Shown here: piece after piece, positions 6,001-9,000 of the stretch
Layout of the letters: each line of letters begins with the position of its first letter
Numbering within the stretch: position 1 is the stretch's first letter
IMG/VR virus record: IMGVR_UViG_2648501361_000001
Origin: a virus
Taxonomy: Monodnaviria; Loebvirae; Hofneiviricota; Faserviricetes; Tubulavirales; Inoviridae
Length of the DNA: 11,610 nucleotides
Direction: 5' to 3' (one strand)
Program-made: the position numbers

Positions 6001-9000
6001 GTAATGATTATTCAGGCCCAACGCTTTCAGCTTGCGCATCCGGTAAGTTGTTTCTATTTTGTCTTTCAGAAAGCGAGCAATATTAGAAAGTGACTGATTT
6101 ACAATAACCAAATCACAGCTAATACCCGTTTCAGGGTGCGTAAAATGACGATGTTCAGCAATAAATGATTTCTTCTCAGCCGTCATATCCTTATCGCTAC
6201 CGAAGATTCTCCATGCTTCATCAATAACAATTAAATCACCAAACTGGCAAAAGCTCCCTTCCCCACCTTTAAAAGGAAAGAAATCTGTTTTAAGCACATC
6301 ATCATTATCCACAACAATAATTTCTCCCGTTGCATCAGGATAACGTTCGGTGATTTTATCTTTTTGTAAACCATAAATGTTCGTCACAACTCTCCGGCCG
6401 CTGGTAAATGCAGGAATAATGACATTGCAAACGGCTTCATAACTTTTTCCTGAGCCGGGTATGCCAATATATGCAGAAATAGCCATAACTCACCCTATAA
6501 CAGGAATACGTCGAATAATAAAACGAGTAGCCATTGCGGAGATAATCATACTAATCCCCTGTGGTAATTTACTCAGATTAATGAAGTACCAGAATCCGTC
6601 TGATAAATTGGCAAACAGCGATGAGAGATTGCTTGAATCTGGCAGTAACTCAACAAGGATTTCAACGAAGCCCTGGACTACAAAATACAGCGCAAAGAAT
6701 ACGACGAATTTAATAATCAATGACCGGAATACAAAACCTAACAAAGTATTTAATGCACTAATCAGAATCCCAAACATAGTTGCACTCCTTTAGGCACTCA
6801 GAATAATACGGAGCGCAACAAATCCCCATATAATCAGAAATATGGTTTCTACGGCGCCTCTGTTCTGCTCAATTAACGGACAATGGGAGTCAATTCTGTA
6901 CTGGTGATTAAACACGCTGAATTCAACAACGGGGCAGGATGCTGAACGAGAGCCGATGTTAAATTCGTTTGTAAAAGGCAACAAGTTAATAATTGGCGTT
7001 AAAATATCTCTTGCCGTTGGCGTTTCTTCAAGCTCAGGCTCTTTTACACCGGGATCTTCTCCCAAAGCTATATTGCCATTATTTCCAGTGTCAGACCCTG
7101 AGTTGTTATTAATGGTAATATCAATATTGACGTCAGCCCCTGCACTGTCAGATACAGGTGAAAGCATATCTAATAACGTTGGAGATAGCCTAAGTTCCGA
7201 CATCGCAGAAGTTACTTCAGCCGGTGAAACCTCTTTAAACGGTAAGCCGTTATAATCGGCATTAACGGCAGCTTCAGACCACAGCTCGTTAATCATGTCG
7301 GCAAGAAGTGCTGGCGATACACTAACACTATCAAGATACTCCAGATAATCAATCATGGACTCAATATTTCCGGCCTCCAGTACTTCCGTCATGGCTTTAT
7401 ATTTGGTATTGGTCCAGATAGTAAGCTCACTCTTTTCATCAATATCTTTTGCGGTGTAATCCTCTTTTTCAGGAACGGCGCAAATCGTCGAATATCCACC
7501 ATTTGACTGATTAGTCGTTTTACAAGGCGTGTTGTGATACTGATATTGCTTGCCTGCTGTTAAATAAGCAACGCTGTAATACATGGGAAGCCCTGCTACA
7601 TTTTCATACATGGGAATACCTGCGGGAAATGAAGATGCGGACGGGTTGCTATACAAGTGTGTAATCTCAGGTATTTCATAAAATGAGGAAGGATAAGTAA
7701 ACTTATAATTATGTTCAGTAAAGGATACATCTCCATTACTGTTGACAACTTTATTCGTCACAGTGCGTTCAAAATTCGTTAGTGTTTCAGTATAAGTACG
7801 CGAGTTATAGTCATTAAGATAATTTCTGGCAATTTCAGTTGGATTATCACCATAGTAATAAATTAGCTCTTTCGAATCCTGATAATAATAAAGCGCATTA
7901 TCTGGCGTGGAATATCCTGTTTCAACACCTACAACTGGAGAACCCGCATCCACATTATTACGACTAACATGAAGGATTACCGGACTTAATTCCTGTGGTT
8001 CAAAATTAACGGTTATCGTCTTACTTTCACCACTTTGACCACTGTACGTTACTTCATATAAATTATCGGAAATCTTTTTACCGTTAGTCATTACCATTAC
8101 CGAGCCGTCAGATGAACTCAAAGAAGACGGAACAAAAGATGATACAGCAGCAGCAATACCCGCCCACGTTGCAACACCGCTCATTTTGTATGATGAGGCA
8201 GCAGGCAAGTATTCGGCAGCATTAGCCGCAGCGCGGCCAACAAAAACACGGGTTGCTGTAAGCTGTGATGCCGTATAAATCGCATCATTGGCAGCAAAGC
8301 GACGAACAAGCACCCGGCCAACGACTTTAGGAATAACAGCCCGCGCAGCCACTGCTGCAATTGCTGGTACAAATGAATATGAATATCGGGGAAAGGAAAC
8401 CCAGAGAAAGGAAAAAATAAAGGAATAAACCGTCAGCCTCTTAGCCCAAGAATAACGACATAAGCTGAGACGATCCCCCATAAAAGGGAACCCAATTTCC
8501 ATAATTCAATCTCCATAATAACCTCAAGTAAAACGGGCGATATTGCATCGCCCATGAATAATGAATTTATGCGGATTTAACGGTACGCAATACCCAGCGA
8601 ACGCCAGCGACACCGGCATAAAGTGTTACCAGTGAAGCAGCAACGGCCATAATCGCAACCAGAACTGTACTGAAATCAATGCTGTTCGTCAGCGGCGATA
8701 AATCAACACCACTTGATGCCGCTCCTTCTGCAGCGAAAGTCGCGCCAGAAACAGCCATTAATGCAGGTACAGCCAGAAAACTAACGATTTTTTTAAACAT
8801 AACTCTATCTCCATTACATTTTAAAGGTTCGCATTCAAGCAGTACGAACCATCTTTATTACCTGTCCCACACCTACAGAAAAAAGCCAGAGCAGCAGGAC
8901 AGAGCCAAAACCTAATGTCCAGTAATTTCCCATTGCAGAATAATCAATTTGATGAAATGGTTCAGAACGTACCATTATTGCCTGACATTCTTTTGCATTG

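Follow-up and report, generated by a model that had tools for sequence, protein, structure and literature searches.

A predicted 27-residue membrane protein gene overlapping the start of the pIII gene in a CUS-1-type filamentous prophage

We analyzed an 11,610-nucleotide (nt) stretch of DNA from a virus of the family Inoviridae (IMG/VR virus record IMGVR_UViG_2648501361_000001), hereafter the window, concentrating on a region of its minus strand (8553-8181) that follows the gene for the major coat protein and contains the beginning of a long open reading frame (ORF) for a pIII-like attachment protein. Bases 6700-9100 of the window are 100% identical to the filamentous prophage of Escherichia coli UTI89 and NU14 and are matched in 109 of 5,426 complete E. 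coli genomes, and the pIII-like protein has 99% identity in Yersinia pestis. The identity with UTI89 and NU14, together with the Y. pestis protein, makes the window a CUS-1/YpfΦ-type filamentous prophage, a phage type that has been described along with the assignment of its puvA gene (PMC4266046). The long ORF corresponds, at 99-100% identity, to PuvA/YPO2277, the pIII-like adsorption protein of CUS-1 and YpfΦ, and disruption of YPO2277 leads to a loss of phage production (PMC4266046). An earlier note on this DNA had seen three overlapping open frames in the region. Our comparison with related phages points to two overlapping genes, not three: a small, unannotated one for a hydrophobic protein of 27 amino acids (aa), and pIII itself, the third frame being noncoding. 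We regard this explanation, taken as a whole, as likely to be correct.

The first feature downstream of the major coat gene is a Rho-independent terminator-like hairpin (8533..8555, minus, as are all the features of the region), identified by a terminator scan (8555-8533) and by the centroid fold. It consists of GGGCGAT-GCAAT-ATCGCCC at 8553-8535, that is, a GGGCGAT/ATCGCCC stem with a GCAAT loop, followed by GTTTTA. A hairpin and T-run are found at the same place in every relative and, since the hairpin is present even though its stem sequence differs between clades, this suggests that the terminator function is conserved. Directly after it comes the Shine-Dalgarno (SD) sequence that the earlier note had described, a GAGG (8522..8525) read directly in the sequence, 5 nt before the ATG of a 27-aa ORF, MEIELWKLGSLLWGIVSAYVVILGLRG (8433..8516, with its TGA stop at 8435-8433). 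The first two codons of this small ORF in turn make an SD-like GGAG (8511..8514), 8 nt before another ATG (8500..8502), which lies 14 nt downstream of the small-ORF start and opens, in the -1 frame relative to the small ORF, a 570-aa ORF (8502-6790). All the features listed by the note, including this ATG nested within the small ORF in another frame and with an SD-like site of its own, are thus indeed present on the minus strand and were correctly placed. An upstream ATG at 8555, which would yield a 40-aa form of the small protein, was rejected as its start: it lies in the terminator stem, is not preceded by an SD, and the extension that it would add is not conserved. As the window contains 130 ORFs of at least 25 aa, a 27-codon ORF is not unusual in itself, and coding status was therefore decided by comparison with relatives.

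Relatives were obtained by a protein search with the 570-aa ORF, which returned full-length homologues at 88, 83, 66, 63, 37, and 36% identity, the DNA of which was fetched, while further ones (Brenneria, Phytobacter, and contigs) came from scans of genomes, viral contigs, and metagenomes. They are designated by L numbers where they need to be told apart. For five sequences, each of the three frames was scored for synonymous and nonsynonymous differences by the Nei-Gojobori method. In the segment 8516-8436, the ratio of the nonsynonymous to the synonymous proportion (pN/pS) is 0.04-0.22 in the small-ORF frame; in the pIII frame it is at least 1.8, or there are zero synonymous changes. Synonymous and nonsynonymous differences (sd/nd) in the small-ORF frame amount to 8/1 between the window and L010 and 14/6 between the window and L003, and other, more distant pairs or clades have a pS of 0.23-1.05 with a pN of 0.03-0.16. 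The earlier note had proposed an alignment of related phages to find out which frame is under purifying selection, and this alignment finds 8516-8436 constrained in the small-ORF frame and not in the pIII frame. The small ORF thus displays the synonymous excess of a protein-coding gene and remains intact in about 15 lineages. The low pN/pS values and the homologues in relatives bear out the suggestion that it encodes a small hydrophobic protein, and we take it to be a genuine, unannotated gene for a predicted 27-aa, single-helix membrane protein with its own translation initiation.

The predicted product starts with MEIELWK, and LGSLLWGIVSAYVVILGLR is a second peptide of the same product. It exhibits one hydrophobic stretch (residues 8-25) and four charges, E2, E4, K7, and R26, and thus has a short acidic N terminus and a basic residue beside its C terminus; it has no signal peptide. 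This charge layout (E2 and E4 vs. Arg26) predicts an N-out/C-in topology, like that of coat-type proteins. Homologous ORFs of 24-30 aa sharing the motif F-L-W-G-L-x-[SC]-A-[WY] occur in these diverged inovirus lineages, whose guanine-plus-cytosine (GC) content spans 33-61%, and in every relative examined the homologue comes after the coat gene and the hairpin/T-run. The carriers are Salmonella, Yersinia, Brenneria, and Phytobacter genomes, metagenomic lineages of 33-61% GC, and salivary inoviruses in GenBank, the extra members having been found by a peptide-pattern search of viral contigs and by tblastn of GenBank phages. Examples are MITELWYLVIFIWGLLCAWAVILGLRG (GC 37%), MDWQMVFFIWGLVSAWAVITGLRGV (GC 50%), MTINELWYFGVFLWGLVSAYAVIEGLKG (GC 61%), and MQNIDLYYFLWGLLCAWAFILGFNH (from a salivary inovirus). 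In a 12-sequence alignment (A3), W13, G14, A18, and G24 are invariant. When the small peptide was compared by tblastn with 50,697 phage records, all nine matches were inoviruses, with weak E-values (0.2-2), and each of the three that were inspected lies between a coat gene and a pIII/attachment gene. The same search with a high-GC 30-aa homologue gave no match, and neither did blastn of the region against the 50,697 records, from which CUS-1-type phages are absent at the DNA level.

The small peptide has no match in Pfam (E ≤10) and its 40-aa form has none in PHROGs (E ≤1); the N terminus of pIII likewise matches neither Pfam nor PHROGs. The Prokaryotic Genome Annotation Pipeline (PGAP) leaves the small ORF unannotated, and the only deposits of the protein retrieved by exact look-up are occasional 40-aa entries labeled "hypothetical protein." The literature on puvA and YPO2277, when searched, yielded nothing about the small ORF. 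With its 84 nt, stop included, the gene is shorter than gene callers usually accept, which would be why annotation missed it.

Downstream of the small ORF, the picture is that of a single gene. In the segment 8432-8185, the pIII frame has a pN/pS of 0.08-0.28, the same as further downstream, and these values argue that it is coding from the codon right after the small-ORF stop. There is no ATG, GTG, or TTG in the pIII frame between 8479 and 8352, where a conserved signal peptide is encoded, so the pIII of CUS-1 must start inside the small ORF. ATG 8502 is the only canonical in-frame start that is kept in 10 of the 10 CUS-1-like sequences, it is preceded by ATGGAG in all CUS-1-like clades that have no start codon at the junction of the two genes, and the pIII frame has a stop two codons further upstream. 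ATG 8502, served by GGAG 8514-8511, is thus the most likely start of pIII. We did not count as evidence the mere openness of the pIII frame over the overlap, since the hydrophobic codons of the small ORF, with T in position 2, nearly preclude stops in the -1 frame. An alternative start would be Met8 (8479..8481), which is ATG, TTG, or GTG in most relatives and CTG in L012 and L033. A local hairpin (GGUUCCCU / GGGGGAUC) is predicted in the mRNA at 8472-8492 on the minus strand and encloses AUG 8481, and both AUG 8516 and AUG 8502 are unpaired in this fold. This is weak evidence, since the z-score of the fold is only -1.7 and the stem is constrained by the S-L-x-W-G codons as well.

Alignment with the signal peptides of relatives, together with hydropathy and charge profiles, delineates a predicted signal peptide in residues 1-43 of pIII (8374..8502), with an n-region (residues 1-22) lying in the overlap, the h-region LTVYSFIFSFLWVSF, and the c-region PRYSYS, and with cleavage predicted to occur at S43|F44. 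In the alignment, residues 23-43 are matched by MKKIVFVAVGIVFFCATANA|VIP, ...PIYRAQA|ALP, and ...LVFAQA|LPV of relatives, whose signal peptides end in ...AQA| or ANA| just before (V/L)(I/L)P. The residues after position 43 (FVPAIAAV...RRFAAND) align with the mature N termini of relatives, in which an RRGFAAND motif is conserved. The mature pIII/PuvA attachment protein, including the stop and a C-terminal membrane anchor, occupies 6790..8373 (homologue alignment, PHROG 3942, and PMC4266046), and its C-terminal IFLIIWGFVALRIILSA is conserved. Gene order, N-terminal alignment, and C-terminal anchor, with the cleavage site being a prediction, are thus those of an inovirus pIII with a Sec signal peptide. 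When the window pIII was compared with the characterized Ff and CTXφ pIII families, no Pfam family matched and only PHROGs of unknown function did. A resemblance of residues 24-36 (TVYSFIFSF) to Ff pIX (VYSFASF) was discarded, because these residues align with the h-regions of signal peptides.

The N terminus of pIII differs between database entries, which give 570 aa (from ATG 8502), 520 aa (WP_024195640.1 in RefSeq/PGAP, from the GTG at 8350..8352), or, for PHROG members, a start near residue 27, and none of these versions notes an overlapping small gene or a signal peptide. GTG 8352 was rejected as the start of pIII since this codon is ATT in L010 and lies seven codons past the predicted cleavage site. 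The RefSeq/PGAP start is probably a mis-call and, because it lies after that site, it yields an annotated 520-aa protein that lacks a signal peptide.

We propose that the two genes would work as follows. The small gene, with its own GAGG SD, would be part of a low-expression unit downstream of the coat terminator. Translation of pIII would start at ATG 8502 using the GGAG inside the small gene, with the overlap contributing no more than the n-region, positively charged and under loose constraint, of a long Sec signal peptide, the hydrophobic core of which would begin right after the small-ORF stop and which would be cleaved at S43|F44. Since the two starts are 14 nt apart, within one ribosome footprint, initiation at one should exclude initiation at the other on any given mRNA. 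Several observations weigh against parts of this reading. The overlap shows no overall synonymous suppression (pS 0.57-0.71 vs. 0.67-0.73 downstream), so that the main argument for its translation in the pIII frame is the absence of another start codon. At the predicted cleavage site, SYS|F is a less typical motif than AXA. The AlphaFold2 model of the 570-aa ORF, made with an alignment of 7 sequences, was too poor to be informative, its mean predicted local distance difference test (pLDDT) score being 43 and every one of residues 1-219 scoring below 50. Although most relatives have an SD-like purine run ahead of the small ORF, L070-L073 have no obvious SD there. Comparison by hhalign of alignment A3 with M13 pVII and pIX revealed no similarity (probability 0.1% and 0.3%, respectively), and in the window and every relative examined the small ORF comes after the coat gene and the hairpin, not between gV and gVIII. 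Lastly, the CTG that overlaps the small-ORF stop (CTGA; 8434..8436) is exactly where L101 has the ATG of its pIII gene (ATGA), which makes noncanonical reinitiation at this possible, weak reinitiation codon conceivable.

Such a scenario would have pIII produced by termination-reinitiation at the near-cognate CTG 8436, with a signal peptide of only 21 residues and with ATG 8502 unused. Besides its positional homology with the pIII ATG of L101, CTG 8436 is one codon upstream of the pIII ATG of L070 and L071, and both the onset of purifying selection in the pIII frame right at the junction and the lack of overall synonymous suppression in the overlap would be expected. However, the codon at this position is ATA in L002/L003 and TTA in L006/L007, which are very poor starts or no starts at all. 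Moreover, the pIII frame has an invariant Arg22 ahead of the junction, whereas the corresponding small-ORF codon 26 varies between R, K, and S. Clades that have no ATG at the junction keep an SD and, in the pIII frame, an upstream ATG/GTG, whereas L070 and L071, which have an ATG at the junction, lack that SD. We therefore consider reinitiation at CTG 8436 unlikely, and initiation at ATG 8502 remains our preferred model.

What the small protein does can be approached from its position and shape. We see roughly even chances of its being a membrane protein that is made in few copies and serves in morphogenesis or as a minor component of the virion, and its location after the terminator, with pIII and pVI, would fit a low-copy product. 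By analogy, it would probably act like Ff pVII/pIX, or partner pIII/pVI, without being homologous to pVII/pIX. According to a 2023 preprint, integrative filamentous phages lack gVII and gIX, and the leading end of their virions is unexplained. A more specific idea, which we put forward only tentatively, is that the small protein is the missing cap protein of integrative inoviruses, either capping the leading end, where it would recognize the packaging signal, or serving as a partner that pIII cannot do without; competition between the two starts, or their coupling, would then set a fixed low stoichiometry of the two proteins. Upstream of the coat gene, the window also encodes an 83-aa membrane protein (8835-9086, minus) without a signal peptide. 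Its N-terminal domain is acidic and contains two Cys, and its C-terminal helix is coat-like, with a basic tail (…VIKMVRTA). Homologues of this protein precede the coat gene in the distant relatives L069 and L070, where they co-occur with the small ORF, and it is a plausible candidate for a second cap component.

The small protein could instead be a membrane-active accessory peptide with a role outside the virion and its assembly, in toxicity, superinfection exclusion, or host modulation. It is, after all, small, hydrophobic, unannotated, and inoviral, and there is a precedent in PftP4, a 33-aa membrane-permeabilizing polypeptide of Pseudomonas phage Pf4 (PMC11769263). The gene for PftP4 comes after zot, however, and not between the coat gene and pIII. 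In addition, the accessory cargo genes of the window and its relatives vary, whereas the present family is fixed in the structural module, 5′ of pIII, across diverse inoviruses, and its charge layout matches that of coat-type proteins. An accessory role is therefore improbable in our estimation, and we retain a role in morphogenesis or in the virion as the working assignment.

The junction between the small ORF and pIII takes many forms among the relatives. The pIII ATG overlaps the small-ORF TGA in L101 (ATGA), is part of a TAATG in L070 and L071, follows the small-ORF stop in the same frame in L098 (TAGATG), and lies 11-12 codons inside the small ORF in L072-L074. In L069, L093, L096, and L103, another gene for a small membrane protein is inserted between the two. 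The intervening gene of L069 (2581-2817) encodes 78 aa with about three hydrophobic segments and is joined to its neighbors by TGATG and GTGA overlaps. This variety is what might be expected if the small ORF were, as we conclude from the comparison, an independent gene that is habitually coupled to pIII, and its separation from pIII in some lineages implies that it is not merely a leader. Because the two starts of the window share one ribosome footprint and relatives display coupling overlaps (ATGA, TAATG, TAGATG), expression of the small protein and of pIII is probably linked and kept low.

The same junctions could be read as those of a regulatory leader or upstream ORF, the translation of which would tune pIII initiation while its peptide had no function. 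In most lineages, pIII starts either within the ORF or right next to its stop, and in the window the two start codons are only 14 nt apart. A leader of this kind is nevertheless hard to reconcile with a peptide that is conserved at near-saturated synonymous sites (pS up to about 1, pN 0.03-0.16), with a motif that is kept across 33-61% GC, and with the gene that separates the ORF from pIII in L069, L093, L096, and L103. With the peptide conserved and the ORF separable from pIII, we find it very unlikely that the small ORF is only a leader; a coupling role may nonetheless exist on top of the function of the peptide.

The third open frame does not fare better. The small-ORF frame is open past its TGA down to a TGA at 8183-8181, which overlaps an ATG at 8184-8182 (ATGA), and it thereby defines a 63-aa ORF (8181..8372). 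From this the earlier note had built a model in which the 27-aa peptide and the product of the re-opened frame are minor coat proteins, and in which ATG 8184, reached through the ATGA overlap, starts a shorter pIII with a signal-peptide-like segment, so that the region would not encode one long pIII. The model can point to an uninterrupted frame that only 2.3% of synonymous recodings of the window leave open, to the ATGA itself, and to the hydrophobicity of pIII residues 107-124. In spite of that 2.3%, the 63-aa frame is a noncoding by-product of composition, because in the segment 8432-8185 its pN/pS is 1.0-2.3 and it carries stops in L009 (the closest relative), L003, L034, and L013; the 63-aa ORF has no match in Pfam or PHROGs. 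The ATGA, although real in the window, is not conserved either: ATG 8184 is an Ile codon (ATA/ATC/ATT) in relatives of 63-66% and 36% identity (L002, L003, L006, and L007). Read in the pIII frame, the 83 codons that precede it are under the same constraint as the remainder of the gene (pN/pS 0.08-0.28), and they encode the signal peptide and the RRGFAAND domain that are conserved in distant relatives. What the note took for a signal-peptide-like segment after 8184 belongs to mature pIII, in which residues 107-124 (8131..8184) form a conserved hydrophobic stretch rich in Ala and Gly. In the stretch 8131-8310 (minus), at the N terminus of mature pIII, an RRGFAAND-type motif is followed by this Ala/Gly-rich hydrophobic stretch, which is about 30-45 residues long and has a transmembrane-like look in high-GC relatives (among L069, L093, L101, and L102). 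We thus give the three-product model very little credence: the region encodes pIII as a single long protein, which in our reading begins within the small gene. A programmed -1 ribosomal frameshift that would fuse the small ORF to the N terminus of pIII is suggested by the -1 frame of pIII in overlapping lineages, and yet it can be set aside, since there is no X_XXY_YYZ heptamer in the small-ORF frame of the window, L010, or L002 and none is conserved in the family, the two genes of L098 share a frame with a stop between them, and a further gene intervenes in L069 and others.

As for the rest of the element, the genes of the window follow the order pII (10470-9418), pV (9406-9089), 83-aa membrane protein (9086-8835), major coat protein (8800-8567), the small ORF, pIII/PuvA (ending at 6790), the DUF2523 protein corresponding to pVI (6777-6490), Zot (pI; 6486-5461), and the secretin (pIV; 5461-4217), all on the minus strand. 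Two stretches of the window, 1-2059 and 9089-11147, are exactly identical (with a period of 9088 nt), span pV, pII, and a helix-turn-helix repressor, and diverge abruptly past 2059 and 11147, which looks like tandem prophage copies with different left-end cargo. This cargo consists of 234-, 91-, and 46-aa ORFs at 2127-3248 in one case and of a membrane-protein ORF at 11188-11610 in the other. A dif-like half-site, GGTGCGCATAATGTA..., is found at about 3318-3345 (minus) in a noncoding stretch beyond the accessory ORFs on the secretin side. Compared with E. coli dif, it matches the XerC arm together with some of the central region (8 mismatches in 28 nt) and would be consistent with a phage attachment region. 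Among the relatives, L003, L004, and L005 (63% identity) have pIII followed directly by a secretin ORF that is truncated (230 aa), pVI and Zot being absent, and in L004 the repressor-pII unit is duplicated; all three look like deleted or rearranged prophage variants.

Extraintestinal E. coli K1 carries CUS-1 as its filamentous prophage and the plague bacillus carries YpfΦ, and yet the small gene is missing from the published gene lists of both phages and from RefSeq, in which the pIII N termini are also inconsistent. The small-protein family is new and widespread in medically relevant prophages, with a function that we can only propose. A deeply conserved, unannotated small membrane protein beside pIII is a testable candidate for an end-building role in integrative phages. 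If its gene was indeed missed for falling below the length threshold of gene callers, inovirus annotations may be systematically incomplete. The corrected model of pIII, with a long signal peptide whose n-region lies in the overlap, matters for display and engineering, and for mapping the receptor-binding domain.

Among known systems, PftP4 (PA0726.1) of Pf4 is likewise an overlooked membrane peptide of ~30 aa that is co-transcribed with morphogenesis genes, and it differs in having its gene after zot and in being described as a toxin; here the two proteins are compared by description only (PMC11769263). The small protein also has parallels with pVII (33 aa) and pIX (32 aa) of the Ff phages (f1/M13/fd), with which it shares a similar size (27 aa), a single hydrophobic helix (residues 8-25), and the lack of a signal peptide. 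It also shares the features of Ff pVII highlighted in a 2023 preprint, namely an acidic/polar N terminus and a basic residue near the C terminus. The resemblance to pVII/pIX noticed in the earlier note holds for size and hydrophobicity, and does not extend to sequence or profile similarity by Pfam, PHROGs, or profile comparison. The genes in question are encoded in the inovirus structural module in both cases, but those for pVII and pIX lie between gV and gVIII, whereas the small ORF is downstream of the coat terminator, next to pIII. In both cases, too, there are stop/start overlaps with a neighboring gene, such as the ATGA shared by Ff genes VII and IX. The coupled V-VII-IX-VIII genes of Ff provide a parallel for the ATGA and TAATG junctions of the relatives described here, in which a short cistron overlaps the start of the next structural gene. 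Unlike in Ff, the downstream start of CUS-1 reaches 66 nt into the upstream ORF, and the resulting 23-codon overlap would encode, in the -1 frame, the n-region of the pIII signal peptide.

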